From Candidatus Margulisiibacteriota bacterium (lineage in GTDB: Bacteria; Margulisbacteria; WOR-1; O2-12-FULL-45-9): a stretch of 64,000 nt of DNA. The position numbers were made by a program, and so were the translations under genes. The DNA lies in the NCBI GenBank assembly GCA_034723395.1, contig JAYEOW010000029.1:73293-137292 (forward strand). Direction: 5' to 3'. Positions within the stretch are counted from its first letter, which is position 1, and every line of letters begins with the position of its first letter. This document shows positions 36,315-60,723 of this stretch, piece after piece. The notes under the pieces were generated by a model that was not told the origin of the DNA, searched no databases, and saw only the letters and a list, made by a program, of their open reading frames with translations.

Positions 36315-36432
36315 CCCCTTTGTCCCCCTCTCCCAGAGGTAGAGGGGGAGTGTGTATAAAAGCCTTTCCCTCTCCCTTTGGGAGAGGGACGCTAAAAAAA
36401 AGGTAAAGGATAGAAAAATACCAGGGTGAGGG
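36308..36432. repeat. Composite MITE-like repeat (CCCTCACCC...CCCTCTCCC-tttg-GGGAGAGGG...GGGTGAGGG)
   Basis: Terminal inverted motifs plus an internal GGGAGAGGG hairpin. It supplies the GTG start of the GH42-like gene. Confidence 0.65.
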
Positions 36433-36435
36433 TTG

Positions 36436-39400: not shown

Positions 39401-39447
39401 ATTACGAACCCATCGTTTGCCGATATATGGTATTTGGGCTTTTTCAT
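36436..39447 (-). CDS. Large hypothetical protein (1003 aa); possibly a glycoside hydrolase or phosphorylase, judged only from its operon context
   Basis: Long ORF between glmS and the GH42-like gene. No family could be assigned by eye. Confidence 0.7.
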   Translation of the reverse strand: MKKPKYHISANDGFVIENYNLSPAFSSFFPGIAGVFGCPMWVFYANRGQCITSAGVNDKDGAIMEFLPANKAYRTVSLTGFRTFIKIDGKFYEPFLENSGNKNEMRITPHDLTLVEENQKLKIRVEVNFFTIANEPYPALARTIKIINLSGKSKKVELLDGIPVIIPYGFADDLLKRISRTIESWCVVKNLDSGTAFCKLKVSPADVSETQLISKGNFFVSPDSSAVIVEPKLVFGETRSFGSPSVFIGQKNFSIPKKQHTQGFTPCAFAYKKLNIKAKDSFSLGSLLGQADSIAALNQIKKNSGEAGFFAKKAEENKKLVDSLCGSAGTQSASKQFDLYCRQNFLDNVMRGGFPVNIDGKIIYLYYRKHGDMERDYNNFKLMPTFYSQGNGNYRDINQNRRNDIFFNPTVADDNIKRFYNLVQLDGFNPLVVLGSQLYIKSKSKAGDIAAKYFKGKEIDLSKPFLLGPLLKLTASPKKAAEEIIEASEIEDSACHGEGFWIDHFSYNTDLLESFEAIYPERVKGLFFDKKIFSFFQNDHYVADRKEKYCLNKGNVRQYRSVRKSDKAAGPQKYKTTLAAKILTILVNKAASFDAEGIGLEMEAEKPDWYDALNGLPALFGSSLSETLELKRLAQYFKTKISDKSEVSLPAEVMEFINLLNNELSHAADPFKYWENSYKLKEAYRKKTRFGVSGKEERLSAKDLLAFLGNIINKCDRGIRKCLSKYKNYYTYFINEVTDYEKHKDKIEVKKFAQKPLPLFLEGFVHALKVEHDKKIYGLVKKSTLYDKALKMYKVNSPLEGEPIEIGRARIFTPGWLENESVWLHMEYKYMLELLKAGLYKEFFGDFKNVLIPFLDPKKYRRSILENSSFLVSSAHPNKDDHGRGFVARLSGASAEFIDIWIIMTTGKKVFSLDDNGKLVFTLSPILPKWLFKKDKFSFNLLGSIEVTYINKTKKNTFDGLRPVSYKIIFDSQEIELTKPYIPEPYSKMIRERKVKKIIVTLG

Positions 39448-39451
39448 TTAA

Positions 39452-41281: not shown

Positions 41282-41282
41282 G

Positions 41283-42626
41283 TTACTGGTTTAATATCGC
41301 TTCTACCTCTTTCTTGGCAAGTTGAAGCTGTTTCCTTATTTTTTCCGGTTTATAATCGGATCCCGAAGTTACATAATCCCACATGATCCCGAACCTTCGG
41401 GTCAAGATCGGCTCAAGCAATCCCCAGCTTGGCACCGGCGGATAGGTACGGCCGATGAGCACCGCTTTTTTAAATATTTTTCGATGAGGATCCCTGGCGA
41501 AGAAGGGATCGTCAAAAGCATCCATTCTGGCGGGTAAGAATCCAGACACTTTTGTGTATGCGATCTGGGCTTTTCTGGAGGTCAAATATTTTATGACCTT
41601 AAAGGCCCCCGCCTTATTTTTAGCATGTTTAAAGATGGCCAGGTTCGATCCGCCGACAAAAGTATACCTTCCCTTGGGCCCTCTCGGATATTCGGTGACC
41701 GCGAAATTCCTGGAAGTGAGCGAGCCGGCCGCGCCCCCTTCGGCAGCGGGGCGGGTCAGGGTCTTAACCTCGTATGGCCCGTCGAAATACATCGCACAGG
41801 TACCGTCGTTAAAGTTGCCGGAGACCTGGGCGGTGTTTAGCTCGAGGTATGATATTGGGACAAAACTGTCGCGGACCAGGCTGATATAAAAAGAGATCCC
41901 GTTAAATACCGCATCACTGTCCAAGACGCAGGTCTTTCGGTCGGCCCCTAAAAAATCTCCGCCAGCCATCCAGATCCATGGGGCAAGCGAGTGGATAACG
42001 TTCCAGTCGTTCTTTCCCGACATGCCGAGCGGAGCGATCGATTGGTCATCGATCACCACATCTGCATCGTAGATCTTCTTGAGTGAACGTTTAAATGAAT
42101 TCCAGGTGTTTAATTCGTAGGGACGGACACCTGCCTTCCTTAAAACGTCCCTCCTATAGTAGAGGGCGCGGGCGTCTACGATCCAGGGGATTGCGGTAGT
42201 CTTGCCCGAGTTTTCGATCCCGGTCGTTTTCCAGGCTACCGGGACAAAGGTCTTTCTTCCGCCAAGGTCAGCAATCGCTTCTTTGGAAAGGACTTCAAGC
42301 GCCCCCATTCCGGTAATTGCCGAGACCCAGGTCGAGCCCAACTGAACTACATCTGGAACGTCTCCGGAAGTCGCGGCGGTGGTTATTTTTGACCAGGCGG
42401 CACCCCAGTCGACCGAGGTGATCTTAACTTTGATACCGGTCTCTTTCTCAAATGGTTCCAGGAGCTCTTTGAGATCGCTGACCGGATCGAGTGAGTTGGG
42501 CATGACCCACATTTCGACAACTTTGCTGTCACTTTTTTTGGCGCCGTTATTGCAGCCGGTGATATTGAGAAGTAGGATGGTAGTTAGTAGTATAGCGGGA
42601 AGCAGAATTAGCAGTCTCTTTTTCAT
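41283..42626 (-). CDS. ABC transporter extracellular solute-binding protein (family 1, sugar-type); no permease or ATPase genes adjacent
   Basis: MKKRLLILLPAILLTTILLLNITGCNN is a lipoprotein signal, followed by an SBP fold. The start was set at ATG 42626 (RBS GAGGAG) rather than the track start at 42764. Confidence 0.85.
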   Translation of the reverse strand: MKKRLLILLPAILLTTILLLNITGCNNGAKKSDSKVVEMWVMPNSLDPVSDLKELLEPFEKETGIKVKITSVDWGAAWSKITTAATSGDVPDVVQLGSTWVSAITGMGALEVLSKEAIADLGGRKTFVPVAWKTTGIENSGKTTAIPWIVDARALYYRRDVLRKAGVRPYELNTWNSFKRSLKKIYDADVVIDDQSIAPLGMSGKNDWNVIHSLAPWIWMAGGDFLGADRKTCVLDSDAVFNGISFYISLVRDSFVPISYLELNTAQVSGNFNDGTCAMYFDGPYEVKTLTRPAAEGGAAGSLTSRNFAVTEYPRGPKGRYTFVGGSNLAIFKHAKNKAGAFKVIKYLTSRKAQIAYTKVSGFLPARMDAFDDPFFARDPHRKIFKKAVLIGRTYPPVPSWGLLEPILTRRFGIMWDYVTSGSDYKPEKIRKQLQLAKKEVEAILNQ

Positions 42627-42723
42627 GTATAGGCTCCTCTCAGTTTTATAGCGAACACAAAACGTAATTATACCATAAATAGGGGGGATTTTCAAGGTAA
42701 GACAGCAAAAAAATAACGTCAAA

Positions 42724-42812
42724 CCCTCACCCAGAGATTTCTCTAATGCCCTCATCCAAGTCATTCTAAACGTTTGGTTTATTCTAAACTTCCCTCTCCC
42801 GAAGGGAGAGGG
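42724..42812. repeat. MITE-like repeat copy upstream of the DUF559 gene (CCCTCACCC...CCCTCTCCC-gaag-GGGAGAGGG)
   Basis: Same motif family as the other copies. Confidence 0.6.
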
Positions 42813-43387: not shown

Positions 43388-45655
43388 TTATTTCGAAGTT
43401 GGCAATAACTTTAATACATCTATCCCCACGATACCCCGGCCAAAGTGTTTTCCGGCAACACTATCGTATTGAATTTCGCCAAAGAGGGCCTGCCTTAGGA
43501 TTGGCAGGTTATACCTCAGGGAGACTGAGTGAGACTGTTCTCCATAATGGAGGGTAGGGTTATCAGTATATGTATAGCGCAAGTCAAACCTTCCCAGCTT
43601 TTTGCTGTCCAAGCCGACGATCGCCTGGTACTGGGTCCTAAGGTCCCATCCCTGCTGGTGGAGACCGCTTGACCTAAATCCGGCAAACGGTTTGAAGTCA
43701 GGGATATTTAACCACTGTGCGGTCAAAAGGATGTTCCATCCCATAACGTTTTCCGGGGTTGTTCCGGTAAGGCCGACCCCTTCTGAATATTCAGGGACCG
43801 AGCGTTTTCCGGCAACTGTTCCGCCGGCTTCGAGCCAGATGTTTGGAACGCCTTTATTCTTGAATTTGCGGTTTAGCGAAAGCGCCAGTTGTAATCCTGT
43901 GTTTACCGCATAATCACCGCCGCCATTGTTGAATGAGAACCCATAAGTATCGTTGCTATAATTTCTCCATGAGTTCTCAAATTCGGCATATGCTTTTAAA
44001 TAAGCGAATTTGGTAGCCAGGTTGCTGCCGAAAGCGATCCCGCCGGTTAATACGTTGTCCATCCCGCTGAACAGGAGGCGGTTTGGATCTATGTAGTTGG
44101 TCCCGCGGAAGGCAAAGTGTCCGTAGGCATCGATATCAAGTTGAGAAATAGGGGAGAAGATAAAATTTGTACCAATTCCCGCCATTCCCAGTATGGTGTC
44201 TTTTGGGTTGTAGTCGAATGCCAACTGCAGGTTCGCACCGACGGTCAGCCAGCTTGGGAAACTTTTGTACTTTTTACCGGAGAGGGCGTTAACGAGAGTG
44301 TTTTCTCTGCCCATGACCGGGGTTGGATGGTGCCGATCTCCCAAAGTGATCCTTCCTGAAAGAAGTGATATCCGTTCGGTGGTCGCCCTTAAATTAGCCG
44401 GAACGTTATCCCGCTGTGATTCTAAAGCAGAGCTTGAGAATCCACCGGTGAATTTAGCGGTTAATGCTTCACTTCCGGCGATCGGCCCGTATCTTAACGG
44501 AAAAGCGGTTGCCGGATTGGTATATGCAAAGTCTCCGATTCTTTGCGCCGTAGTTTTGTCATCCGCGACTTCGGCAATATTAAAACTTCCTTGCGCCAGA
44601 ACCCTGTTTCCGTCCATGACCTTGATGGTCCTGTTCCCTGCCGTTGCGTCATTAGGCGCGCTGGCGGTAAATTTAAGTGTAGTATCATTGATCCGCCTAA
44701 CGTTGCTTACACTGACTCCGGCTGGAGAAACGAGGATCGCCGGATTTGCCGGCAGCTTGCGGCAATCAACTGTGACGGTAACTTCCTTAGTTTCACCTTT
44801 CTTGAGGGAGCTGGGGGACACGCTAAGAGTTGGTGAACATTGAGGGGGAACGATGGTCAATGCGTTCGCCTTGGTAGTAGCGAGCTTTGGATACCGCTGC
44901 ACATGTGTTTTATGGGCGATACGGAGATCGCGTGCGCCAAGCTTGGCGTCTGAAGCGATCTTTATCTTAAAGGTCACGGTTTTTCCGTCAGCCTTGACAT
45001 CCACCGAGTTGGGGACGATCGTAATTTTACCATCAACATCGCTTCCGTTTAGAAAACTGATCTGAAGATCTTTAACTTTAGGGATATGCTTACCTTTAAC
45101 GGTTACCGTAATTTCTCCGCCCTGGGTAGCGTCTGCGGAAGTGGTGACTGTGCTGATAATTGGAATGAATATTTTCTTTAATGCACAGCGTTTAAAAACT
45201 ACTCTTTTCTCGGCAGCCACGTAAGCATAGAATGCCTTTGCGTTTTGAGTTTTTAGTTTATAGACTAATCTGCTAAGTCGGGCAATCTCTCTCCTGGCAG
45301 TAATATTTGTTCTGCCGGTAAGGGCTTTGCCGGTATTTTTGTTTTTATAGGCACCATTTTTGATCATCTCAATGGCTTTAGCGAAGATCTTCTTAAGGAG
45401 GGCTCTTTTTGGCGGTCTCAGGCTGCACTGTTCGGCTACAACCACTTTTTGAGCAGCTTGGAAGGCATAAAACGCATCTGGATTTTTGGTCTTTAGCTTG
45501 TAGATCGCGCGGGTGATCTTGCTAAGTTCCCCGGTAGTTGAACTAACATCCGAACCGCCAGATGTCCGCACATCCGTAATGGCAGTGCCGAAGATCTCTT
45601 TAAGCAGAGCTCTTTTTGGGTCGCTGACTTGTACTGTTAATGATGCATCTGGCAT
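43388..45655 (-). CDS. Hypothetical 755-aa protein: N-terminal tandem ~65-aa duplication, Ig-like middle, beta-barrel-like C-terminus, no signal peptide
   Basis: Internal repeat PKRALLKEIFGTAI...IYKLKTKNPDAFYAFQAAQKVVV paired with PKRALLKKIFAKAI...VYKLKTQNAKAFYAYVAAEKRVV. Strong RBS AAGGAAGG upstream of ATG 45655. Confidence 0.7.
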   Translation of the reverse strand: MPDASLTVQVSDPKRALLKEIFGTAITDVRTSGGSDVSSTTGELSKITRAIYKLKTKNPDAFYAFQAAQKVVVAEQCSLRPPKRALLKKIFAKAIEMIKNGAYKNKNTGKALTGRTNITARREIARLSRLVYKLKTQNAKAFYAYVAAEKRVVFKRCALKKIFIPIISTVTTSADATQGGEITVTVKGKHIPKVKDLQISFLNGSDVDGKITIVPNSVDVKADGKTVTFKIKIASDAKLGARDLRIAHKTHVQRYPKLATTKANALTIVPPQCSPTLSVSPSSLKKGETKEVTVTVDCRKLPANPAILVSPAGVSVSNVRRINDTTLKFTASAPNDATAGNRTIKVMDGNRVLAQGSFNIAEVADDKTTAQRIGDFAYTNPATAFPLRYGPIAGSEALTAKFTGGFSSSALESQRDNVPANLRATTERISLLSGRITLGDRHHPTPVMGRENTLVNALSGKKYKSFPSWLTVGANLQLAFDYNPKDTILGMAGIGTNFIFSPISQLDIDAYGHFAFRGTNYIDPNRLLFSGMDNVLTGGIAFGSNLATKFAYLKAYAEFENSWRNYSNDTYGFSFNNGGGDYAVNTGLQLALSLNRKFKNKGVPNIWLEAGGTVAGKRSVPEYSEGVGLTGTTPENVMGWNILLTAQWLNIPDFKPFAGFRSSGLHQQGWDLRTQYQAIVGLDSKKLGRFDLRYTYTDNPTLHYGEQSHSVSLRYNLPILRQALFGEIQYDSVAGKHFGRGIVGIDVLKLLPTSK

Positions 45656-46384: not shown

Positions 46385-47317
46385 TTATTGCGGGATCTCA
46401 AAAATCGGCTTTTTCCTCGGCGGCTTTCTCTTCATGGGAGGCTTCCGCTTCATCGGCGGTTTTTTCTTCATGGGAGGTTTCCGCTTCATTGGTGATCTCC
46501 GCGGAGTTTCTCTCATCGGAGCCTTCATTGCTGGTCTTGGCGCAGGTGCTGTCCTGGTAGTAGGCTTGCCGCATTTATCTATGGTTTTTTCTATCTCATT
46601 AGCAACTTTAAGCAGAAATTCTGGCGTAAGCCCTTTTAAAACGACCTTTGAGGAGTTTAATCCAAGGTATTTAACCCGAAAATCGCCAACACCTTTAACG
46701 ACCCGGTTGCAAGCTTTCTTTTGGGATTCGGTTAAGATGCCGGATAAACCGGAAACCACGTCAAACAGAGGGTTGTGGACAGCTTTCTCCCCGATCGTAA
46801 TAGTTTCAGATGAAAGCATTGTGATCATTGCTTCGCGTTGAGCAGGGGAGAGGGAAGCTATTTTGTTCTGCAGAGCCTTATGGGCAGAGCCGATTAAAAA
46901 CTCTCGCTTGTTTTGGGATGGATCAGCATAGATAGTATTAACTAATCTTTTCGCAAAAGACCTGGCTAAAACAGGCTTTCTTTGGTTGTCTTTGTTGGTA
47001 TTCAATCCCAGTCGATTATCAATCAGCAGATTCTTGGGGTTACATATCTCATTGCTAACTTTAGGGCTTGCGTCGGAGATTATCGCTGTCAGGTCCGCAA
47101 AGGAGATCTCAACAAACTTGCCTGCTTTGTTTTTGCTTCCCGCAACCTCAACTTGTTTAGGCCCGCAAGAAGAAAGGATTCCAAGGCCCGATAAAGCCAG
47201 GGCAGCCGTTGCGCCCGCTGCGGCGCTCTGTTTTAAAAATCCACGTCTTTGTTCTAAGGTGACCGTTTGTCTTTGCTGGGGACGGAAAAACGATCTTATT
47301 CTGGTTAGTAATTTCAT
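46385..47317 (-). CDS. Tat-signal lipoprotein with a C-terminal basic Pro/Lys repeat tail
   Basis: QRRGFLKQSAAAGATAALALSG is a twin-arginine motif, followed by lipobox LSSCG. The C-terminus has four KRKPPMK repeats, encoded by a 36-bp tandem DNA repeat at 46419-46490. Confidence 0.75.
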   Translation of the reverse strand: MKLLTRIRSFFRPQQRQTVTLEQRRGFLKQSAAAGATAALALSGLGILSSCGPKQVEVAGSKNKAGKFVEISFADLTAIISDASPKVSNEICNPKNLLIDNRLGLNTNKDNQRKPVLARSFAKRLVNTIYADPSQNKREFLIGSAHKALQNKIASLSPAQREAMITMLSSETITIGEKAVHNPLFDVVSGLSGILTESQKKACNRVVKGVGDFRVKYLGLNSSKVVLKGLTPEFLLKVANEIEKTIDKCGKPTTRTAPAPRPAMKAPMRETPRRSPMKRKPPMKKKPPMKRKPPMKRKPPRKKPIFEIPQ

Positions 47318-47462: not shown

Positions 47463-47607
47463 TCCTCACTCCGGAACTCTCACCCAAACAATTCCCTACT
47501 GTACAAACTTCTTAAACGGCCCTCTCCCTATGGGAGAGGGAGCGATAGAAAAGCTGTTGGTTAATGAGCGCTTGGGTGAGAGTTCCGGGGTGAGGACAAA
47601 AAAATAG
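47463..47607. mobile_element. 145-bp MITE with 25-bp terminal inverted repeats (TCCTCACTCCGGAACTCTCACCCAA); its interior derives from the DUF559-element 3' end
   Basis: TIRs were verified by reverse complement. The interior carries CCCTCTCCC-tatg-GGAGAGGG and ttggttaatgagcgcttgggtgag. Confidence 0.65.
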
Positions 47608-47654
47608 GGCTAACCAATTAAGGTTAGCCCTAAGTTAAGTCTAACTAAACTAGA

Positions 47655-49598
47655 TTACAGTGAAGCGACCGGCAATGAACCTCGCAGCTGCGGCCGGGTT
47701 GGGATGTTTTCCCTGCGGAATCCCTTTTCCCAGGTATAAAGATCTTTGATCTTTCCGCCAGCCAGCGCGGTGGTTGAGAGCATCTCTACCGATTCGGACC
47801 TGGGCAGATTGGTCTTCGGATGGAGATAGTTTCTCTTTACGAACTTTAACATTCCGGCTCCCTTAGCCGCCTGGATATATTTGGACGCCCAGTAGTTGGC
47901 CGGCACGTCCCAGTAAGGTTTTTCAAATACTTCAGAAGCGACTTTTAAGTTGTCAAAGCGGACCAGGACCGCGATCCCTTCAGCCTTGTTGATCTTGTTG
48001 TTCGGCCTAAAGGTCTTGTCCGGATAACCTTTTACCAACCCTTCGCGTTTGGCAACTTCGATATATTTAGCTGCCCAGAAGGTAGGTTTAACATCCTTGA
48101 AGACTTTTCTGGCAGAGCGATTAGGGAGCTTGAGCCCTTTGGCACGGACCAGCAGGGTAGCTAATTCGGCGCGGGTAAGCGCTCTTTCCGGTTTGAATGT
48201 ACCGTCAGGGTATCCTTCGACCAGCCCGACTGTTCCGGTATTTTCGATTGGAGCCTGCGCCCAGTAGCCTTCCGGAACGTCGTCAAAGTTGACCAGCCTT
48301 ACCATCCGGAAATCCTTAGCGGTATAATCCCCCGCGGTATCGGTAGCTTCGAAAACAACTAATTTCTTTCCGACCTTGTCTACCGGGATATCAGCGGAAA
48401 ACTTAAGATCTTTGCCAAGCGGAATGCTCACGCCGTTGGCTTTAATCGCGATCCTGCCCGGGGCAGCCTGGGTCTCATCTCCGGCGATAACTTCGACATA
48501 CCCTGAAACCTCGACGTGATCATCATAAATGACCGATTTGTCTTTCGGGCTGTCGATATGCACCCGTAATTCACGCTTTCTCGCTTCTCCCATATAGCTG
48601 ATCGAGAAGAAAGAGGTGGCGTTATCAGGTATCCCCGAATAAGGGTGATAAGCGTAGTTAAATTCGATCCCGGCCAACCTGACACCTATGCCGGCGGTGA
48701 TATCCTGTCCGTCAACCCCGGTGCGGAAAGCGAGATTGCTTACCGGCCAGAACTCCAGCCCGTAATGCATCCTGTCATTATCGTTGATGTTTGCTCCGGT
48801 ATCGTAGTCGAGGTTCAGATAAAGCCTTCGGGTGTTGTGGGTGGTGTAAGATTCTCCTTCTCTGCCTAAGACATTGAATTTAGCGCCCAGCTTCAGGTTT
48901 GACGGAATATCTTCGTTTCTCCCGGTTGAACGGGTCAGCTTACTGGCTAAAACGTTTTGATAGTTAAGTCCCAGGGTCAGGTAATCGGTTGCTGGATAAA
49001 GCAGTCCGAGGTCCGCGCTGTAGCCGGTACCGGCGGCGTCGCCTAGGCTCGCAACGTCGTTTGATCCCGATCCGCCAACGCTATGGTACTTAAAGCTTCC
49101 ACCGATAAGGACGTCCTTATCGACGTTCCTTAAGGCCGGGAAAGTATTGAGGTAGGTAGCTCCGGAGATAAAAAGGACCGTACTGCTCCAGGCTCCGTCT
49201 CCAGCCAGGGTCCCGTCTGAATCGGTCAACGAGATCCCGCCGGTATAAGAATTGATAATCCCGGCTCCGATCGCGCTCTTGTCGCCGTAAGGATAAACTC
49301 CGCCGACGACCGCGTAATTTACATCATTTAAGAGTGAGCAGTACATGCTGGATAGCTTTGGGTTTACCGCCCGGGCGATGCCAGCCGGATTCATGAAGAG
49401 AGCGTCACTCCCCTCGGCGACACCGACATAGGACCTGCCCATGCCGATACTGCGGGCGCCGACGCCGATCGACATCGGGTCCGACACCATTCCGCCCTGG
49501 GCCAGCGCCCCGGGAATGACAAATGTCAAATAACAAATGACAAATAAAATTCCAATAATAAATTTTGGATTTTGGATTTTGGATTTTGGTTTTTTCAT
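47655..49598 (-). CDS. Outer-membrane protein: N-terminal PorV/FadL-like beta-barrel domain fused to three C-terminal SLH domains
   Basis: Signal peptide, then DPMSIGVGARSIGMGRSYVGVAEGSDALFMNPAGIA (paralogous to 4990..6192). C-terminal GYWAQAPIENTGTVGLVEGYPDGTFKPERALTRAELATLLVRA, FWAAKYIEVAKREGLVKGYPDKTFRPNNKINKAEGIAVLVRF and YWASKYIQAAKGAGML are SLH repeats. Confidence 0.85.
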   Translation of the reverse strand: MKKPKSKIQNPKFIIGILFVICYLTFVIPGALAQGGMVSDPMSIGVGARSIGMGRSYVGVAEGSDALFMNPAGIARAVNPKLSSMYCSLLNDVNYAVVGGVYPYGDKSAIGAGIINSYTGGISLTDSDGTLAGDGAWSSTVLFISGATYLNTFPALRNVDKDVLIGGSFKYHSVGGSGSNDVASLGDAAGTGYSADLGLLYPATDYLTLGLNYQNVLASKLTRSTGRNEDIPSNLKLGAKFNVLGREGESYTTHNTRRLYLNLDYDTGANINDNDRMHYGLEFWPVSNLAFRTGVDGQDITAGIGVRLAGIEFNYAYHPYSGIPDNATSFFSISYMGEARKRELRVHIDSPKDKSVIYDDHVEVSGYVEVIAGDETQAAPGRIAIKANGVSIPLGKDLKFSADIPVDKVGKKLVVFEATDTAGDYTAKDFRMVRLVNFDDVPEGYWAQAPIENTGTVGLVEGYPDGTFKPERALTRAELATLLVRAKGLKLPNRSARKVFKDVKPTFWAAKYIEVAKREGLVKGYPDKTFRPNNKINKAEGIAVLVRFDNLKVASEVFEKPYWDVPANYWASKYIQAAKGAGMLKFVKRNYLHPKTNLPRSESVEMLSTTALAGGKIKDLYTWEKGFRRENIPTRPQLRGSLPVASL

Positions 49599-49614
49599 AA
49601 TGGTTTTCACTCCT

Positions 49615-52005
49615 TTACTGTTTGATCACGAGGATCTTACCTTTGGATATTAAGCTCTTGTTTTCCTCGTTAACGACTCTTAAGATATAGAGGCCATCGG
49701 CCACATGGTTACCGTTCATATCCTTTCCGTCCCAGGTTGTACTTACCTGATCGGAAGTTGTCTGGTGGTAGGCCAGGCGGGCGGTCGCATCGTAGATATA
49801 GATACCGATGACGGTTGCGTTAGTGTTGTAACCGATAGTCGCGGTATTATGGGTCGGATCTGCAGATCGCGGATTGAACGGGTTTGGATAGATGGTTGCG
49901 TTCCCGGTCGAAGACGAACCTGAGGTCACCTTAAAGGCGGCCGGGTTCGATTCGTAAGCCTGGATAGTTCCCTGCGCGATCGCTAATCTGATTACTTTCA
50001 GCGTATAGTCGCCAGCCGGCGCCAGTCTTGGGACGATCGCTTCGATCGAAGTATCGCTCCACGAAAGGACGTCGCACTGGTAACTGGTATGGGTAGTATT
50101 GTTTTCGAAGACCAGGACACTCTGGCCTTGAGAATTGCCGAATCCGGAACCGATACCGGTGAACTTGGTCCCTGCCGGTCCGGCATTCGGTTCGATCTGG
50201 GTAATGACCACTTCACTTTCGCCGGTCGGAACAACCGGTCCATCAGGGAAGTTTACAGTTCCCGCGTAGAAACTGTCGATATTCTGGTAGTTTGCGTTGG
50301 TCCCCTGCGACGGGTAGGAGAAACCGTAAGATACGATTTGGCTCCAATCGAGGGTTCCCTGGACGTTTGCAGGATCGTCGGCATCCCAAACGAGGGATGA
50401 TCCGGCAACCTGGATGGCGTGATAGCCAGCCTGGTTTAATGACATGTTAGAGACGCTCGCGGCGTAAACCACGTCGTTGGCATCTTTTAAGCTGAGCTTA
50501 ATGACGTTAGACGATCCGTCCCAGTTTACATAGAAGGTAAGGGTGTCGCTCGCGTAAGCGCTCAGGTCCAATCTATTTGATACCGAAGCTCCCCATCCGC
50601 CTCCCCAATCACTGGTGTAAGAGTAGAGGATATTCATCCCTCTTGACCCGTGAGAGGCTGCGGAGGCCTGCGGCCCGTCCGCGTTAATCGTGCTGTTATC
50701 CGGAGTTATTCCGGTCCCGTAGGTGTAGTATCCAGAGTCAGCCATCCCCTGGGCATAGCTGCCTACTGAACCGCCTTCGAAGTCATCGATGATAACTCCT
50801 CCGGCTGTAATAGTAATTGCTCCGTCGTCTGCCCCGATAACAACATTTCCAGAGGTTGCTCCGGATGGGACAGCGCAGGTGACAGAATTGTCGCTCCACG
50901 CGGTCGGGTTGGCAGTCGCGCCGCCGACGGTGATCGTTCCCGGATTTGCGCCAAAGCCTGATCCGGTGACGACGATAGTCTGGCCGACATAGGCATTGCT
51001 TGGTGTTACGGTAATTCCGCCGCCGCCGTTTTGGTTAACGGTAAAGGTTGCCGAACCTTGGGCGCCAGAAACTGTTATGGTTCTAGCGGTTAATGGAGCG
51101 GTTGCGTCGATAACAAAGTCGGCAGTTAGAGACGTTCCCGATCCACCCACGTTGCTAACAGTTATTCCGGTATCAGGGGCAACCGTTATAGTTTCGCCTC
51201 CGGTCCAAGTGGTGTTTGATCCGCTGATAGTTACAGGGACAGTAGCTCCCTGGTTTCCGCTGGTCGGGCTGATGCCGGTAACGGTAGGTTGAGCAGCAGT
51301 ACCAATATTTATTGATAATGCTTGAGTATCGGTTTGTGCTCCAGAATCTGAACACTGAACAGTAAAGTTTGATGTTCCAGTTCCGGTCGGTGTTCCAGAG
51401 ATCAATCCGCTAGAAGCATTTAAGCTTAATCCGGCCGGCAGAGATCCAGCAGAAATTGACCATGTATAAGGAGCTGTTCCGCCAGTTGCTGAAACGGAAC
51501 GACTATAGGATACTCCCTGAGTTCCGCCAGCTAAGCTGGTGGTAGTAATGTTAAGCGTAGTAACTCCGTATTGAGTAGTGGTTGAGAAAGCTGGGGGATT
51601 GTATCCACTCGGCAGCATGATAAATCCTGTGCCGACATTTTCTGGCGTACTTGTGCCATAATAGGCCCCGACGGGTGGAGTTCCGGTGCCATCCCAGTTT
51701 TCCCAGACGCGAATATAAACATAATTACCAGCGGTTATGTTTCTTATGCCCGAAAAACCGCCGCTAATTGTAACTCCGACTGGTGGTTCAATAACAGTAT
51801 CTCCTTGTGGAAGTCCGTTTGCGTCTGGTGCTCCAGCGTTTGCGTCAGCAGAGTCAATAACTTGTACATATGCCCCGGGTGCAATTGGCGTTCCAGAGTG
51901 GTTTGTTACATCGGTGGCAGTTACTGTAACAGAAGTCGCAAATGCCGCGCTTGCACAAAGGACCAACCCGACTGCAATCAATATTTTTGAGAATCTTTTT
52001 AACAT
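49615..52005 (-). CDS. Large surface adhesin with He_PIG and IPT/TIG-like Ig domains and a C-terminal T9SS-type/FlgD-Ig-like sorting domain
   Basis: LPAGLSLNASSGLISGTPTGTGTSNFTVQCSD matches He_PIG. C-terminal IYPNPFNP...IYIYDATARL...TWDGKDMNGNHVADGLYILRVV...KGKILVIKQ matches the Por_Secre_tail/FlgD_ig pattern. Confidence 0.85.
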   Translation of the reverse strand: MLKRFSKILIAVGLVLCASAAFATSVTVTATDVTNHSGTPIAPGAYVQVIDSADANAGAPDANGLPQGDTVIEPPVGVTISGGFSGIRNITAGNYVYIRVWENWDGTGTPPVGAYYGTSTPENVGTGFIMLPSGYNPPAFSTTTQYGVTTLNITTTSLAGGTQGVSYSRSVSATGGTAPYTWSISAGSLPAGLSLNASSGLISGTPTGTGTSNFTVQCSDSGAQTDTQALSINIGTAAQPTVTGISPTSGNQGATVPVTISGSNTTWTGGETITVAPDTGITVSNVGGSGTSLTADFVIDATAPLTARTITVSGAQGSATFTVNQNGGGGITVTPSNAYVGQTIVVTGSGFGANPGTITVGGATANPTAWSDNSVTCAVPSGATSGNVVIGADDGAITITAGGVIIDDFEGGSVGSYAQGMADSGYYTYGTGITPDNSTINADGPQASAASHGSRGMNILYSYTSDWGGGWGASVSNRLDLSAYASDTLTFYVNWDGSSNVIKLSLKDANDVVYAASVSNMSLNQAGYHAIQVAGSSLVWDADDPANVQGTLDWSQIVSYGFSYPSQGTNANYQNIDSFYAGTVNFPDGPVVPTGESEVVITQIEPNAGPAGTKFTGIGSGFGNSQGQSVLVFENNTTHTSYQCDVLSWSDTSIEAIVPRLAPAGDYTLKVIRLAIAQGTIQAYESNPAAFKVTSGSSSTGNATIYPNPFNPRSADPTHNTATIGYNTNATVIGIYIYDATARLAYHQTTSDQVSTTWDGKDMNGNHVADGLYILRVVNEENKSLISKGKILVIKQ

Positions 52006-52021: not shown

Positions 52022-55000
52022 TTAGTATGGTCTTACCATGTTCCAATTGATTGAGCTCTGAACAGGTTCGGTTAGCATGTAACCTTTACCTGGGATCAAC
52101 TGTAATGTCGTTGGAGCAGCCAATGTTCCATCTAACCATGTTGCTGATTCGGTATGGACAGCGACGCCATCTACGCCGCCAATTGTGTCGGCGTTTGCGT
52201 CGAAATGATAAGCCATAGCTGCGACTGTCGGACTTGGGGCATAGGATGAGGCATTTAATCCAGCATTAACAATATCAACTGGTATTGGATAAGGGTTAGC
52301 CATCCAGTTGGCAGGCATGGAGGCCCCGCCATCTAAGGTGCGGTCGTAATCGGCTTCTCGGACCATACCTACAAGAGTGATAAATCTACTGGTCATCGTG
52401 AAATAACCATAGGTGTAACCAATTTCAATATCGGTAATTGGGCCTGTGGCGCCAGGATAAGTATCCCAAACACCACCAGAAAAGATCGATCCTTCGGTTA
52501 CGTTTTTGCCGATGTCGAAAGACATGATCATATCCGTATCCGCGGCCTGATTTCCTATTACGTTTTCAAGCGTGGTATCACTTAGCTCTAAAGGACTTGA
52601 GATGAAAAATCTTTCAATTTCGGTCCCAACCGCAATATCAAACTTCCCGGCCACATTGGTCTCCAGGTCGCTATCTTGCAGTGTATTTCCGGTAGGTATA
52701 ATTTTGTAGTATTCTGCGGTTCCTTGTCCAACCTGGTTTTGGATCGTTATGGAGCCAATTGTAACATTGGCCTGTTCCAAAGTCCAATCCGCGGCGGCAG
52801 TCGTAAAATACGAAGTATAGTTGCCATCCGTGTCGGTAGGGCAGGTCAATTTATAAACATCCACGCCGAGTCCCGGAGGGATCGTGTCCCAGGTAATAGT
52901 TATTCCAGAACCTGGATCATCGCCATCGCGGGTGATCTCGATATTTACGATCGGATCTCCGGCAGTAGAGCCGGTTTCAAAAGTAAACGGATTTGGCTGG
53001 GTGCCGGGGATCAAGGCGTGTCCGTTAGCCCCGTCTGCCGCAGTCACGTCAAATTCATATAAAGTATCGATAGCAAAAGGAGTATCGTGGACCAGCGTTA
53101 CCTGGGTAGGTGAATTCCACTCGGCAGCTCTCCATCCTGTTGGATCCGGATTGATCGAATAGGTAAAGGTTGCCGGGTTAATATCCTGGTTAAAGGTGAT
53201 AATAACTTCCTGGTTTAAGGTTACATCGGTTGAAGATTCAACCGGAGTAGTATTAATTATGTATGGAGCTAACTTGCTGGGATCGGTTGACGCCGTAAAA
53301 GTAAACTGGGTTGTGCCAGTTAAAGTTTCTGCCAGGGTGCTTTGCGCGCCGACATCAAATGTATATTCTGTGCCGACAGTGAATAGTTCACCGGCGTGAG
53401 GCAGGCTTGCCCGCGTATTCCCTTCGGTCCAGATAATGCCGTCAAAGTTCACGTTTGGCGTAATGTTCATGCTGAATGTGCTGGTGTCGACCGCGCGGTT
53501 GAACTTGATCGTGACCGGCGCGTTTAACGCGACATCCGTTTCGTTATTAGTCGGATAAGTCTCGGTGACCTGGAACTCTCCGCCGCCGGTGTTAATTACA
53601 AAGTCGGCAGGCCCGGTCCCCCCATTTCCGAGGCCGTCACCACCATAAGGGGTGGTAGGGACCATAAGGTTCCCATCATCGGCTACGGCCATCCATTCGT
53701 ATGCGCCGTCCGCTAGTCCGTCAAAAGTGATCCTTACCGTGGTCCCTGAAGGGACGGGATCGATAGAAATTCTGGTCGGGGGGTCCATCGTCTCCGCTAT
53801 CCGGTATCCGGCGCTTGGAATAATTTCGTCTCCATCCGGATCGATAACTGTGAACTCGACGATTACCGTATTATTATCTGTCTCTTCCCCTTTTTGGAGC
53901 ACAGTTGTCCCGTCATGCGCGTACTGCACCAGGTTTGTCGGATTATTGGGATATTGATTTCCGGCATAGATACTATAATCTTCAAAATTCCCGTCCGGGC
54001 TGTTGCTTAATCCCGCGTATTCCCCATTGTTGTCAACAGAGAGCCCGTCGGCCTTAATGGCGCTGGTTATCTCGGTCCCTGCTCCAGGGATACTGGAGGT
54101 ATTGATCCTGTATATTTTAGTGGTGTTTTCGCCGGCATCCTGCGCCTTTTTGAATACCACTTTGCTGCCGTCCCGGGTAACGTCAAAGGCATTCCATCCG
54201 TACGACCCGGAGACATCACAGGTGACATTTCCGACCAATGATTCGTCGGATGTGTTGTAAGCCTTCACGACAACATCATCGTAACCGTTGACCGCGGCAT
54301 AGAGCCGGTCGTTGCTGAACTTAAGATAAGTAGGGTAGGTAAGATCGGTGTTAATGACCTTCTCGTAAACCACAGTGTCGTTTACGTCTCCGTAGGTAAA
54401 GACGTAGATCTCTCCAGCCGAAACTTTACGGGAAAGATATACCTTGTACGAAGTGGCGCTGGTCGAAGTGACCGCGATATCATAAAGATTGGTCTTTCCA
54501 GCGAGATTAGTGATAACCGCTTTAACATAGGTGTCGTTTAAGGTATCGAAGATAAGCATTCTGCCGATACCCTGATCAGCGACAAAGAGGCGGTTGTTGC
54601 CGCCAACAGCCATTCCGGCAGGAGAAGATGCGGACGCCCAATAGGCGCCGGTCATCTCATTGACGGTCCCGGTAGGAATACCGGTAGAAGGGGTTAACCC
54701 ATGAGCCTGGACGGCAGAGTTTTTACCGTTGCTGATGCTTATATATAATGTATCCCCGTTTGGTGAAACGGCGAGCCCGTAACATTTGGAACCGGCCGGA
54801 AGTGGGATCGTGCCCGCGACAGTACCTTTCCATTCGTAAGGAATGGTCGCGGATTTCGCGTATATTTTAATTTGCGGGACTGAGTTGTCGACGATATAAA
54901 GCGTATCGGAGATCGGGTTGATCGCGCTTTTGGCGGGGGTAACCGCGGTAATTGCGTGAGCTGAAGCGCTAAGGCCGATCAGCAGGGCCGTTAAAAAGAG

Positions 55001-55030
55001 CAGATATTTAAAATACTTTTTTATCTTCAT
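52022..55030 (-). CDS. Secreted 1002-aa surface protein with beta-propeller-like repeats and Big/SbsA-type Ig domains
   Basis: Signal peptide MKIKKYFKYLLFLTALLIGLSASAHA. TPVESSTDVTLNQEVIITFNQDINPATF is SbsA_Ig-like. Confidence 0.8.
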   Translation of the reverse strand: MKIKKYFKYLLFLTALLIGLSASAHAITAVTPAKSAINPISDTLYIVDNSVPQIKIYAKSATIPYEWKGTVAGTIPLPAGSKCYGLAVSPNGDTLYISISNGKNSAVQAHGLTPSTGIPTGTVNEMTGAYWASASSPAGMAVGGNNRLFVADQGIGRMLIFDTLNDTYVKAVITNLAGKTNLYDIAVTSTSATSYKVYLSRKVSAGEIYVFTYGDVNDTVVYEKVINTDLTYPTYLKFSNDRLYAAVNGYDDVVVKAYNTSDESLVGNVTCDVSGSYGWNAFDVTRDGSKVVFKKAQDAGENTTKIYRINTSSIPGAGTEITSAIKADGLSVDNNGEYAGLSNSPDGNFEDYSIYAGNQYPNNPTNLVQYAHDGTTVLQKGEETDNNTVIVEFTVIDPDGDEIIPSAGYRIAETMDPPTRISIDPVPSGTTVRITFDGLADGAYEWMAVADDGNLMVPTTPYGGDGLGNGGTGPADFVINTGGGEFQVTETYPTNNETDVALNAPVTIKFNRAVDTSTFSMNITPNVNFDGIIWTEGNTRASLPHAGELFTVGTEYTFDVGAQSTLAETLTGTTQFTFTASTDPSKLAPYIINTTPVESSTDVTLNQEVIITFNQDINPATFTYSINPDPTGWRAAEWNSPTQVTLVHDTPFAIDTLYEFDVTAADGANGHALIPGTQPNPFTFETGSTAGDPIVNIEITRDGDDPGSGITITWDTIPPGLGVDVYKLTCPTDTDGNYTSYFTTAAADWTLEQANVTIGSITIQNQVGQGTAEYYKIIPTGNTLQDSDLETNVAGKFDIAVGTEIERFFISSPLELSDTTLENVIGNQAADTDMIMSFDIGKNVTEGSIFSGGVWDTYPGATGPITDIEIGYTYGYFTMTSRFITLVGMVREADYDRTLDGGASMPANWMANPYPIPVDIVNAGLNASSYAPSPTVAAMAYHFDANADTIGGVDGVAVHTESATWLDGTLAAPTTLQLIPGKGYMLTEPVQSSINWNMVRPY

Positions 55031-55033
55031 CGA

Positions 55034-56071
55034 TTATTCCCCCTGCGACAGATTGAGCGTGACCGACACCGGCGCGTAATAGGTGGCGTCGACCGCTGAT
55101 CTGGCGTCGATATAAACTTTGTAGCCGAACTCGACACCGGTCTCTCCGGTTTCGTTGCATACCGGAGGGATGTCAATGACATACGGAGCCATATTGCTCG
55201 CGTCTTCGGTGCAAACCGTGCCGATTCTTTGAGAATTCGAAGGGTCAAAACCTGGGTTGAGTAAGTCTTCCGGGCTGAAGTACCGGTTATCTTCGAAGTG
55301 TGTGGGTTCTCCATCAGCATAACATATCAGGTAGTAATATGCCAGGTATAGGGGGAGCCGGTTGTTGGCGTCATCCGGGCAAGACCAAAGCTTATCGTAT
55401 TCCGGGGTTTCGCATCCCGAAATTCCCCAGAGCTCACGGTTTTCATACTCTTCGGCGGTTAACATGCCGAGATTGATCAAACCGTCAAAACAACCCATCA
55501 CGATGTCAGGGCTGTCGATGATCCCGTTGCCGTCCCAGTCGATCTGGATAGCGAGCGGGTTGCTAGCGACCCTGATCTCGAGGTCAACACTTTGCAGGCC
55601 GGAGCCGACTAGACGGCCGGACCTTACTGCAAGTAATCCAGTTCCCTGGATAAGATCGGTTCCTGAACTTTCGATATGATCGACAAAACCGCTCCCGATA
55701 AATAAGTTGCCGCCATCATCGGTCGGGTGGGGGATCGATCCATCCATGACACCGCCGTCGCTGGGGTCCATTACATGTCCGTCGCCAATATGGTCGACAA
55801 TGTTGTCCCCTGACGCTCCGCCGCATCCCACGGCGCTGATCTCAGATTTGCTGGACCATATATCACTGACCCAGTTGATCGCTCTTTTGTAAAAGGGCTC
55901 TTCAGCCTTAAGTTTAAACGCGATAGAAGGCAGATCAATATTGGCGGCTGGTTTCGGCTCTGCGGCCGGCTCGTTTGCGATACACATTCCTTCGTCAGCG
56001 CTGTACTGCCCGACGACATCTCCGCTCCTTTTGCTCACCACATTGTAATTCATTGATAGATCGAAACTCAT
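55034..56071 (-). CDS. Signal-peptide-less protein (paralogue A): conserved ~100-aa N-terminal domain plus an EF-hand/dockerin-like Ca-binding loop
   Basis: Its N-terminus aligns with paralogue B at 61467..63068 (YN..Y.R.G.LV..Y...C...EP.APE...YKR..N.V...W.SKS...AVGCG). DWDGNGIIDSPD is an EF-hand loop. Strong RBS AAGGAGGA. Confidence 0.8.
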   Translation of the reverse strand: MSFDLSMNYNVVSKRSGDVVGQYSADEGMCIANEPAAEPKPAANIDLPSIAFKLKAEEPFYKRAINWVSDIWSSKSEISAVGCGGASGDNIVDHIGDGHVMDPSDGGVMDGSIPHPTDDGGNLFIGSGFVDHIESSGTDLIQGTGLLAVRSGRLVGSGLQSVDLEIRVASNPLAIQIDWDGNGIIDSPDIVMGCFDGLINLGMLTAEEYENRELWGISGCETPEYDKLWSCPDDANNRLPLYLAYYYLICYADGEPTHFEDNRYFSPEDLLNPGFDPSNSQRIGTVCTEDASNMAPYVIDIPPVCNETGETGVEFGYKVYIDARSAVDATYYAPVSVTLNLSQGE

Positions 56072-56164: not shown

Positions 56165-58336
56165 TCAGGTCTTTTTTCCGGCATTCGGGTTTAATGTGTT
56201 TATGTCATTTACTCCCAGGTAATCGAGTATATCTTTTGCCCCTTTTGCAAGCCTTAGCGCCGTTTGCTGCATATCCCAGGCTGTTTGCCCGAGCCGCGCG
56301 TCGATCTTATCGGCATTAGCGATTATTTTTTCCGCTTGTGCTGAAACTTTTTCGGTCTCCAAAGATAACATCCGCATACCGTCTTTAACGCTGCCGGGTT
56401 TGCTGGCCGGATCGATATCCTGAAGAATGGTTGCCATGTCTGTAAAAATTCGCTTTTTTTCTGCCTCGTATTTGGAGCTAAGCGATGCACGGCTGCTGTC
56501 TAATAATCTTTGGGTTATTCCCAATCGTTTTTCTTTCATGGTTATGAGTCGGGAATTTTTGTCTGGATCGGAGCTCAGTTCAGCGATCTCTTTTTTAAGG
56601 CTGTCCACGGTTTGCCCTAGTTCCGGTATGTTTTCGTCTTTGGCTAAAGCATTTTTATACCATTTATCTAACTGGTCAAGCTGGAATTTAAAAGACATCC
56701 TTGCGCCTTCGATGGTCTCTTTTAGGGCGTCGGTTTCGGAGGCAAGGTTACCAAGGGCATGGGCTCGGGCCATAAGGTCCCGGTTTTTTGCCCTGAGCGC
56801 ATCAGCAGTTTTGCCTTCGGCGGCTTCTTTTGCGGCAGTTGCCTGACCAAGATCATGTTCGGCGACCTGCAGAGCGGTTTTGAGGTCGACGACTTGATTG
56901 CGGGCAATTTTTAGTTTCGCTTCCAGCGAAGCGGTCGCCTCTCTAATAGCCGCCTGCGTATCTACTATTTTTGCCGCTTCGTTTATTGCTCCTGACGGAA
57001 ACGTCTTTGTCGCGCTCGATCCTGTTTCTACCTTGATACCCATTTCATCGACTCCATGAATCTTTTCCTTTTCGAAAAGGAAAAGGGTAATATTATCTTT
57101 TGAGGTTAAAACTGCTTTATTCATTAATTCTCGCGCGGTTTCGGCGACCGGCGATAATTTATTTTCGGTCAATATTTCTTTTATCCTTTTAAACGTCATT
57201 TCCTGCAGGCCGTCAGAAAGGACCAGGAAACGGTCCCCTTCCTTGATTGCCACTTCTGTGACAGTGATATCAATTTCATCCTTTCCCAGGGATTGAAGAA
57301 TAACGTTAGCCCTGAGGTTGTTTTTTCCGGCATCGAGCTTTTTAAGATAATCCTCTCCGTATGGGGCTCTTGTATCTTTTTCTCCGCTCTTTTCCTCTAC
57401 TTCGAGGCGTGCTAATCCTCCTATTACTGAATCGGGGGCGGTCAGGAGCTCCAATTCCCCGCCATATTTCGAACGAACGATCAAGCTGTCCCCGATATGC
57501 GCGACGCGGGCGCTCTTTTCGCCGATCTCAAGGATCGCCAATGTGGTATCGGGACAATGTGCTTCATGCGGAGCATAGCCGTACTCAGTTTTATATGAGG
57601 TTTTAAAATCAGAAATGTATTTTCTTAGTCCTTTGCTGGCGGCATCGACAATATTGGGCAGATCTAATCCATTTTCGATCGCGAGCATGGCCGCGGAAAG
57701 GGCGATATCCGAAGCGACCTCTCCATTTGCCGCTCCGCCCACGCCGTCGGCGACCAGGAGATATTTTTTTCCGTTCGCTTCAACATAAGCCATTCCATCC
57801 TGATTATTTTTCCTTCCGCCTACATTAGTGATGCCGTATATTCCTTTGTCCGATAGGTCTATCTCTCCGTTTTTTATGCCGCCGGAGCGGATGTCACAGT
57901 TGGGAAGGCGGGCATATAGTTCACCTATCAGTTCCTCTATTGCCTTATCTTCATGTCCGATCCAGTTTCGGGCGGCCACAAAGATATGCACGGGTTGCTC
58001 ATAACTCTCCTGCGCAAGCAATGCCCTTAGGGCTTTTTTGGTGCTTTCCGGATTACCGTTTTCAAGTACCTTTATTTGCGCTTCTTCGGGGCGGGGAGGG
58101 GGAATGTTCGCAGGTTTTTCCGCGGGCAGCTTCATTAATGCTAATGTGAGTTGTCCTTGTAATGCAAGGGCCTCCATTTTTATTTTCCCGTCAACTTGCG
58201 CCTGTCCCAATGCGATCGGCTGGATAACATTTTGTAGAAGTTTTGCGAGAGGGCCCCTCCACCTTGCTTGTGGTATTGTTTTTTTCCTGATGTTGCGCAA
58301 GTGGGCTAAAGTTATTTTTCCAAAATTAACAGGCAT
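56165..58336 (-). CDS. PP2C-family Ser/Thr phosphatase with a long C-terminal coiled coil
   Basis: LVADGVGGAANGEVASDIALSAA is the PPM motif. Its start overlaps the kinase stop. Confidence 0.85.
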   Translation of the reverse strand: MPVNFGKITLAHLRNIRKKTIPQARWRGPLAKLLQNVIQPIALGQAQVDGKIKMEALALQGQLTLALMKLPAEKPANIPPPRPEEAQIKVLENGNPESTKKALRALLAQESYEQPVHIFVAARNWIGHEDKAIEELIGELYARLPNCDIRSGGIKNGEIDLSDKGIYGITNVGGRKNNQDGMAYVEANGKKYLLVADGVGGAANGEVASDIALSAAMLAIENGLDLPNIVDAASKGLRKYISDFKTSYKTEYGYAPHEAHCPDTTLAILEIGEKSARVAHIGDSLIVRSKYGGELELLTAPDSVIGGLARLEVEEKSGEKDTRAPYGEDYLKKLDAGKNNLRANVILQSLGKDEIDITVTEVAIKEGDRFLVLSDGLQEMTFKRIKEILTENKLSPVAETARELMNKAVLTSKDNITLFLFEKEKIHGVDEMGIKVETGSSATKTFPSGAINEAAKIVDTQAAIREATASLEAKLKIARNQVVDLKTALQVAEHDLGQATAAKEAAEGKTADALRAKNRDLMARAHALGNLASETDALKETIEGARMSFKFQLDQLDKWYKNALAKDENIPELGQTVDSLKKEIAELSSDPDKNSRLITMKEKRLGITQRLLDSSRASLSSKYEAEKKRIFTDMATILQDIDPASKPGSVKDGMRMLSLETEKVSAQAEKIIANADKIDARLGQTAWDMQQTALRLAKGAKDILDYLGVNDINTLNPNAGKKT

Positions 58337-60663: not shown

Positions 60664-60723
60664 TCTAATTATTCCTCCCAATCTATATTGTTCTTGCCCT
60701 AAAGGCACACTATCTCTATGTAT

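Follow-up and report, generated by a model that had tools for sequence, protein, structure and literature searches.

A PorV/PorQ-like barrel with C-terminal SLH repeats and its adjacent adhesin gene: a candidate wall-anchored surface display module in Margulisbacteria

The subject of this study is a pair of adjacent genes in a 64-kb stretch of DNA from a Candidatus Margulisiibacteriota bacterium; this whole stretch is referred to below as the window. The downstream gene encodes a PorV/PorQ-like β-barrel protein that carries three SLH repeats at its C-terminal end, and the gene immediately upstream encodes an adhesin that ends in a C-terminal domain (CTD) of the kind known from type IX secretion (the T9SS). 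On balance, and with some reserve, we favor the view that the two genes constitute a module for cell-surface display in a diderm Margulisbacterium, in which the barrel would hold the CTD of the adhesin and the SLH repeats would tie the barrel to the wall. The positions of the relevant features are collected in Table 1; those that had been given in an initial annotation, made by reading the window without database searches, were all correct.

Architecture and family assignment of the two proteins

The barrel–SLH gene starts with the ATG at 49598, which has AGGAG on its 5′ side; an alternative GTG start at 49610, present in the list of open reading frames (ORFs), was rejected as lacking a ribosome-binding site. 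The 647-residue product has a 100%-identical counterpart at NCBI, which comes from a Candidatus Margulisiibacteriota metagenome-assembled genome (MAG). Its signal peptide combines a charged N-region with a hydrophobic core and ends in an A-L-A cleavage motif, and residues 11–26 form a helix in an AlphaFold2 (AF2) model that was built on 34 orthologues (pLDDT 79). This model contains 14 long strands between residues 81 and 335, a β-sandwich, and three SLH helix pairs (residues 445–620), so that the 14-strand barrel considered in the initial annotation is indeed predicted. The last barrel strand, TSFFSISY, is internal to the protein and resembles a β-signal.

The assignment of the N-terminal domain to PorV/FadL-like barrels, originally made by eye, is borne out by both profile and fold searches. 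The hidden Markov model (HMM) PorV_fam (NF033709) matched residues 43–335 with E = 2.8e-23 and 83 bits, just under its curated cut-off of 90, and all 34 aligned orthologues match the same model (best E = 1.4e-34). A por_somb match to the protein spans one SLH repeat only, and PorP_fam gave a weak match in one of the 34 orthologues. When the model was compared with the PDB using Foldseek, the top matches were the PorV chains of the SprA translocon (8gl6_F, E = 2.5e-11; 6h3i_F, E = 6e-11; TM-scores 0.61–0.64), followed by TodX, FadL, and OmpG, all of them 14-strand barrels. The segment preceding the barrel is poorly ordered in the model and bears the motifs DP..IGVGAR.LGMG and F.NPAG, which are invariant; residues P41, A48, R49, G54, N70, P71, and G73, among others, do not vary in the aligned orthologues.

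The barrel is followed by an Ig-like spacer, modeled as an eight-strand sandwich (residues 343–434, pLDDT 85–90), and many orthologues have a precomputed PF09136 domain at this position. The three SLH repeats noted initially are firmly assigned: SLH (PF00395) is the sole Pfam match of the protein (E = 1.5e-24; 86 bits versus a cut-off of 20.8), and the C-terminal part of the model matches the SLH trimers of SpaA and Sap, which were solved with pyruvylated wall-polymer ligands (TM-scores 0.75–0.83). R476, A477, E540, and R600 are invariant among the aligned orthologues, and the Arg and Glu of the TRAE-type motif are conserved in repeats 1 and 3. Barrels with an even number of strands have both ends in the periplasm, which is where the Ig spacer and SLH module are accordingly expected. 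This order of barrel and wall-binding domain is that of OmpA and is topologically ordinary for a periplasmic tether; it is inverted relative to the N-terminal SLH of OmpM/Slp-type porins, as had been pointed out at the outset.

The adhesin consists of a signal peptide followed by He_PIG, TIG, CBM11-like, and TIG domains (Pfam) and the CTD. The latter follows the pattern IYPNPFNP...IYIYD...WDGKD.NG..VADGLYILRV...KGKILVIKQ and ends at the last residue of the protein. TIGR04183 matched the whole protein with 23.6 bits, a small margin over the cut-off of 23, and the isolated tail with 29 bits; FlgD_ig gave 22.4 bits, under its cut-off of 27. A CTD profile was then built from 28 tails of genes adjoining related barrels. 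Searched against the PDB, this profile first retrieved the CTD of PorU (6za2, residues 1055–1154 of 1156; E = 4.4e-14), then FlgD Ig domains and the CTD of PorZ (5m11; E = 2.5e-9), with the CTDs of cleaved cargo (8glj, 8glk, and RgpB) giving weaker matches (E = 6e-4 to 5e-2). TIGR04183 matches were obtained for 28/28 of these partner CTDs, PorU C-terminus matches for 27/28, and PorZ C-terminus matches for 24/28. Judged by these profile scores, the adhesin tail scores as a T9SS type-A CTD and not just as a generic Ig fold, in agreement with the initial annotation. Of the refuting outcomes named there, none was obtained in the searches made.

Table 1. Positions in the window of the features discussed in the text
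Feature	Position	Strand	Basis
PorV/PorQ-like barrel + Ig spacer + three SLH repeats	47655..49598	(-)	ORF, 647 aa
Signal peptide, aa 1-33 (MKKPKSK...VIPGALA, followed by QGG)	49500..49598	(-)	read from sequence
N-terminal plug segment (DPMSIGVGARSIGMG...FMNPAGIA), then 14-strand β-barrel, aa 34-340	48579..49499	(-)	DSSP strands, PorV_fam match
Ig-like β-sandwich spacer, aa 341-436, predicted periplasmic	48291..48578	(-)	AF2 strands
Three SLH repeats, aa 437-625, motifs LTRAE, INKAE, LPRSE	47724..48290	(-)	Pfam SLH, Foldseek
Surface adhesin, 796 aa, partner protein	49615..52005	(-)	ORF, domain matches
C-terminal sorting/anchoring domain of the adhesin, aa 702-796	49618..49902	(-)	TIGR04183, CTD profile, AF2 β-sandwich
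AGGAG ribosome-binding site of the barrel–SLH gene	49610..49614	(-)	sequence
Intrinsic-terminator-like hairpin	47605..47632	(-)	11-bp stem, 6 G-C pairs, T-run
Barrel-only PorV/PorQ-family paralogue, 400 aa	4990..6192	(+)	PorV_fam 97.7 bits, cut-off 90

The two genes are the last of four minus-strand ORFs that succeed each other with gaps of 3–16 nt (55034–56071, 52022–55030, 49615–52005, and 47655–49598). The TAA stop codon of the adhesin gene (49615–49617) lies directly 5′ of the ribosome-binding site of the barrel–SLH gene, and the 16-nt junction reads TAA-AGGAG-N11-ATG. Such a tight junction suggests that the genes are cotranscribed, possibly with coupled translation. Since a strong hairpin with a T-run begins 23 nt past the barrel–SLH stop codon, the transcription unit appears to end with this gene. 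Chance juxtaposition or an assembly chimera was considered and rejected, because the same junction recurs in dozens of relatives and was also found on a Logan contig from an independent assembly (SRR26901924).

The other two ORFs seem to be part of this transcription unit, and neither product has a CTD. The 52022–55030 product (1002 residues) has a signal peptide and two Big_5 domains, and parts of it recur 5′ of the adhesin gene in four relatives (L004, L009, L003, and L006); the 55034–56071 product (345 residues) has no family match. Directly upstream, in the same orientation, lie overlapping genes for a Ser/Thr protein kinase (790 residues) and a PP2C phosphatase (723 residues; together 56165–60708, minus strand), which could regulate the surface-protein operon.

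Conservation of the gene pair and of wall-binding fusions

More than 100 full-length orthologues of the barrel–SLH protein (38–81% identity) were found, only in Margulisbacteria, WOR-1, Saganbacteria, or unclassified MAGs. Some barrel–SLH and barrel-only relatives are labeled "Candidatus Omnitrophota" (L017, P0149, and P0194, from one MAG series with VMD02_ tags and another); these reflect either a binning error or genuine occurrence outside Margulisbacteria. A subgroup of the orthologues is 840–940 residues long. It may share the architecture of a protein from a marine Margulisiibacteriota single-cell genome (L014:922–3471), whose barrel is followed by two complete SLH triplets, that is, six repeats.

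Gene pairing was surveyed in 80 loci with 10-kb flanks, using one genome per species, by an iterative search with the last 100 residues of the adhesin over all ORFs. In 43 of the 80 loci, which span many phyla, the barrel gene has a same-strand gene for a CTD-ending protein directly upstream. Where the barrel is fused to SLH repeats and at least 500 nt of upstream sequence is available, a same-strand CTD-ending ORF lies directly upstream in 18/19 loci. Elsewhere than upstream of the barrel, only about 16 CTD matches were found in approximately 1.1 Mb of flanking sequence. In a separate search of a protein database, CTD matches fell on contigs of 8558, 13938, and 68876 bp, the same sizes as contigs with barrel orthologues. 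The C-terminal half of the adhesin is retained directly 5′ of the barrel gene in relatives; the passenger parts of the CTD partners range from approximately 290 to more than 3000 residues and contain adhesin-type or "choice-of-anchor" domains, which are typical of sorted surface proteins. Clustering of approximately 540 ORFs from 31 Margulisbacteria and Saganbacteria neighborhoods yielded the barrel and the CTD protein as the only conserved gene families. No further conserved neighbor, such as a translocon, was found in these 31 neighborhoods, the other recurrent clusters being antisense shadow ORFs of the barrel gene.

The two proteins of a pair have also diverged together. Identity matrices of CTDs and barrels are correlated (Mantel r = 0.84), with none of 5000 permutations reaching as high a value. 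The co-variation extends to paralogous pairs within a single genome: loci L012 and L019 share 37% identity between their barrels and 24% between their CTDs, and L012 compared with L013 of another genome gives 68% and 64%, respectively. This pattern fits cognate recognition between CTD and barrel, and it is also expected from the linkage of adjacent genes alone.

Pairs of PorV-like barrels and CTD proteins are found in Riflebacteria, Elusimicrobia, Coatesbacteria, and other lineages outside the FCB group. The initial annotation had treated PorV and CTD cargo as hallmarks of T9SS in the FCB group; such pairs are not restricted to that group. In two of these loci, a full-length PorU is encoded directly upstream of the PorV-like barrel (L037:5692–9951 on the Coatesbacteria chromosome CP070755, 443 bits; L035:4134–10019, 434 bits; cut-off 420), and the phyla concerned are not usually listed as having a T9SS. 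In P. gingivalis, porU and porV are 75 bp apart (PMC5445135). The best-supported interpretation of these profile matches and gene orders is that the CTD protein–barrel pair is homologous to the porU–porV and PorZ–PorQ pairs. None of the Margulisbacteria CTD partners contains a PorU-like peptidase part.

The stand-alone paralogue of the barrel that had been noted in the window (Table 1) is a member of the PorV/PorQ family, with 28% identity to the fusion protein across the barrel (E = 7e-32). It starts at a GTG codon downstream of a tRNA-Glu gene, and a Lys/Pro-rich linker and a predicted helix take the place of the SLH repeats; it has no adjacent CTD gene. Like the paralogue, its close orthologues are barrel-only. 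In the same clade, more distant members have three C-terminal SLH repeats directly after the Lys/Pro-rich linker, and three members have LysM instead (the relatives behind these counts are P0146, P0152, P0155–P0163, P0199, P0202, and P0203). In this lineage, PorV-like barrels have thus repeatedly acquired wall-binding modules at their periplasmic end, which supports the tether function independently of the CTD evidence. Three distant barrels (P0230, P0231, and P0236; 25–29% identity) have a C-terminal FlgD_ig-like domain of their own (WNGEDTDGRLV.DG.Y) that lacks YPNPF. A "Rosetta-stone" reading of these fusions was rejected, as the extra domain is C-terminal, and so periplasmic, and is without this motif.

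A display module and the competing interpretations

In the display module that we favor, both products would be exported by Sec. The barrel protein would insert into the outer membrane as a 14-strand barrel of the PorV/PorQ type, and its C-terminal Ig spacer and three SLH repeats would, in the periplasm, bind a peptidoglycan-linked and probably pyruvylated secondary cell-wall polymer. The adhesin would reach the cell surface and be kept there by its uncleaved PorU/PorZ-type CTD, held non-covalently on the extracellular face of the cognate barrel. A precedent is provided by the type IX attachment complex, in which the CTDs of PorU and PorZ are retained, bound to PorV and PorQ, respectively; cognate PorV-like barrels have been suggested to protect CTDs from cleavage (PMC10202324). 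The resulting mechanical chain would run from the wall polymer through the SLH repeats, the Ig spacer, the barrel, and the CTD to the adhesin, which would in this way be fastened to the wall across the outer membrane, and the barrel would double as an additional tether between outer membrane and wall. The initial annotation had left a choice between attachment and a shuttle. The conserved and co-diverging pair argues for attachment; a barrel fixed to the wall is unlikely to act as a mobile shuttle, and a fixed anchor fits better.

Several points weigh against this model, in addition to the linkage argument given above. The main gap is the route of the adhesin across the outer membrane: neither the T9SS core genes (sprA/sov, porK/L/M/N (gldKLMN), porT, and porU) nor csaB were found among the ORFs of at least 150 residues in the window, although this absence says little for a genome of one to a few Mb. 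The barrel–SLH protein falls short of the family cut-off, and it is not PorV or PorQ proper, since the equivalog models gave only 36.6 (PorQ), 26.9 (PorV2), and 18.3 bits (PorV), far under cut-offs of 220–325 bits (PorV NF033710, 250; PorQ NF033711, 220). The FadL-type NPA hatch motif is invariant, which leaves room for a channel function. A Foldseek search with an AF2 model of the TIG domain and CTD (last 200 residues) returned generic tandem-Ig matches, with PorZ (5m11) at rank 28; the fold search does not discriminate, and the specificity of the CTD assignment therefore rests on sequence rather than fold. Finally, the FlgD_ig-like C-termini of P0230, P0231, and P0236 are periplasmic by predicted topology, so that an extracellular binding site is not the sole possibility.

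A bolder version of the display module, which we put forward tentatively, is that barrel and CTD protein form a self-contained surface anchor that functions without a T9SS translocon, motor, or sortase. Each barrel would permanently hold one cognate CTD protein in Margulisbacteria and Saganbacteria, and possibly in Riflebacteria, Elusimicrobia, and Poribacteria, and in the lineage studied here the barrel would also be bolted to the wall by SLH or LysM. If this were true, the T9SS attachment complex (PorU–PorV and PorZ–PorQ) would be a specialized descendant of an older and widespread barrel–CTD anchor, and the "orphan" TIGR04183 proteins of phyla without Por genes, such as those noted in Poribacteria in 2014 (PMC3909097), would be explained.

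The strongest competitor, although in our estimation an unlikely one, is that the barrel acts mainly as an outer-membrane-to-wall tether, as a FadL-like channel for hydrophobic compounds, or as both, the adhesin being envelope cargo that is merely co-expressed and does not bind the barrel. That SLH and LysM are fused to barrels of two clades indicates selection for wall attachment itself, and the stand-alone paralogue manages without a CTD neighbor. FadL and TodX are the next-best folds, with the NPA motif invariant, and terrabacterial diderms depend, according to the available accounts, on SLH-barrel tethers of the OmpM type. This interpretation, however, leaves unexplained why a CTD gene should lie directly upstream in nearly all SLH-fused loci and across phyla, even though the passengers vary from 293 to more than 3000 residues, and why the CTD should be of the PorU/PorZ type. 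Moreover, no Pfam FadL (PF03349) match was obtained for the barrel–SLH protein at E ≤ 0.01, the precomputed domain being present in two distant relatives, and Margulisbacteria and Saganbacteria have already been reported to possess OmpM.

Less likely still is a canonical, complete T9SS, in which the barrel would be a PorV, used for shuttling or attachment, that happens to carry SLH repeats, and the adhesin would be a normal cargo, its CTD being removed by a PorU sortase encoded elsewhere. The grouping of the barrel with PorV/PorQ by family and fold and the TIGR04183 match of the adhesin would be expected in this case, the gene scan covers the window rather than the whole genome, and the true PorU–PorV pairs in little-studied phyla (Coatesbacteria, L037) indicate that T9SS may be wider than textbooks allow. 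Nevertheless, a barrel tied down at the wall would not be free to diffuse as a shuttle, and there are several barrel/CTD pairs per genome, each co-diverged, instead of a single PorV for many dispersed cargos. By profile, the partner CTDs are like those of the retained PorU/PorZ type and unlike cleaved-cargo CTDs, the Margulisbacteria partners are without a PorU-like peptidase, and no T9SS gene is conserved in about 30 Margulisbacteria and Saganbacteria neighborhoods or present in the window. Review abstracts describe T9SS as restricted to Bacteroidota or to the FCB group, and we found no literature linking Margulisbacteria with type IX secretion.

We consider it very improbable that the barrel protein binds the CTD in the periplasm (through its Ig spacer, for example), with a periplasmic or wall-associated "adhesin" and a module that organizes the periplasm: the periplasmic FlgD_ig-like domains of P0230, P0231, and P0236 and the lack of an evident outer-membrane translocon near the module would suit such an arrangement, but those fused domains are without the YPNPF motif of CTDs, solved T9SS complexes show PorV binding the CTD after or during translocation (8gl6; PMC10202324), and the He_PIG, TIG, and CBM-like domains of the adhesin, like the "choice-of-anchor" domains of its relatives, are typical of exposed surface proteins.

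Comparison with known systems places the display module closest to PorV (LptO)/PorQ and their partners PorU/PorZ. It shares with them the barrel family (by HMM, at a score just under the cut-off), the 14-strand FadL-like fold with PorV as top PDB match, a CTD whose nearest solved relatives are those of PorU and PorZ, and the gene order of porU–porV, with the CTD protein first. It differs in the Ig spacer and SLH repeats, predicted to be periplasmic, in the low equivalog scores, and in a partner that is an Ig/TIG/CBM-type adhesin without a C25 peptidase or PorZ propellers. The PorP/SprF barrels (e.g., sprB–sprF of Flavobacterium) likewise have a cargo gene next to that of a cognate PorV-like barrel (PMC10202324); they have type-B CTDs, as opposed to the type-A, FlgD_ig-like CTD found here, belong to another barrel subfamily, operate with a full T9SS, and lack a wall-binding domain.

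Among tethers, OmpM, Mep45, SlpA, and the cyanobacterial SLH-OprB porins combine, in the available descriptions, an outer-membrane barrel with covalently joined SLH repeats that bind a peptidoglycan-associated polymer in the periplasm, and they occur in the same broad group of bacteria. Those descriptions give OmpM an N-terminal SLH, a coiled-coil stalk, and a C-terminal porin barrel, whereas the SLH repeats are C-terminal here, the spacer is Ig-like, the 14-strand barrel is of the PorV/FadL type rather than a general porin, and there is a dedicated CTD partner gene. OmpA resembles the barrel–SLH protein in having an N-terminal barrel with an internal β-signal and a C-terminal periplasmic wall-binding domain; in OmpA, however, the barrel has 8 strands, peptidoglycan is bound directly by the OmpA_C domain, and a partner protein is lacking. 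FadL and TodX share the 14-strand barrel, the N-terminal hatch segment, and the conserved NPA motif, and form the second tier of fold matches, but they have neither a CTD partner nor a periplasmic extension, and Pfam FadL does not match the barrel–SLH protein.

Neighboring genes and biological meaning

Some further genes in the window are worth recording. A gene of the LytR-CpsA-Psr family (13150–14022, minus strand) is relevant to the SLH ligand, as this family ligates secondary wall polymers to peptidoglycan. Downstream of the barrel–SLH gene, 46385–47317 (minus strand) encodes a 310-residue protein with a twin-arginine signal (TIGR01409, 24.3 bits) and C-terminal KRKPPMK-like Lys/Pro repeats, which is not conserved beside the adhesin/barrel module in relatives. 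The protein encoded at 43388–45655 (minus strand; 755 residues) has a duplicated N-terminal segment of about 90 residues, Ig-like repeats, and weak matches to "choice-of-anchor Z" and QH-AmDH domain III; its β-rich C-terminal half might be another outer-membrane barrel, and no homologue was found in related loci. A sugar-utilization cluster (31960–42764, minus strand) encodes a GH94 protein of the cellobiose/chitobiose-phosphorylase type, a GH42 β-galactosidase, an unannotated protein of 1003 residues, GlmS, and an ABC solute-binding protein. The genes for the latter two are also found as a pair 3′ of the adhesin/barrel module in the relative L011.

The family assignment of the barrel is not new, as NCBI labels some orthologues "PorV/PorQ family protein", and the arrangement is family-wide in Margulisbacteria and Saganbacteria rather than peculiar to this genome. 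The claim that it is uncharacterized holds in another respect: the fusions to SLH and LysM, the strict association with CTD adhesins of the PorU/PorZ type, the occurrence of such pairs well outside the FCB group, and the resulting mechanical model are undescribed in the searchable literature. No paper combining PorV with S-layer homology was found, nor anything relevant in the literature on Termititenax or on secretion systems of Margulisbacteria. Margulisbacteria are sister to Cyanobacteria, and, to our knowledge, T9SS has not been reported in them.

If the display module is correct, a two-membrane bacterium would have a mechanical connection between a surface adhesin and its cell wall. Gram-positive bacteria anchor surface proteins by SLH or sortase, and diderms otherwise do so only indirectly. 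The barrel–SLH protein would also represent a second kind of SLH-barrel tether in Terrabacteria, with reversed domain order, another barrel family, and additional LysM variants, and would bear on how outer-membrane tethering and the diderm-to-monoderm transition are currently modeled. The pair offers a testable hypothesis for why phyla that lack Por genes have T9SS-type CTD proteins, an observation of long standing, and for how the T9SS attachment complex arose. In current annotation, NCBI names for the orthologues are inconsistent ("S-layer homology domain-containing protein" or "PorV/PorQ family protein"), and the partners are called "hypothetical" or "IPT/TIG"; recognizing the barrel/CTD pair would improve the annotation of many candidate-phylum genomes.

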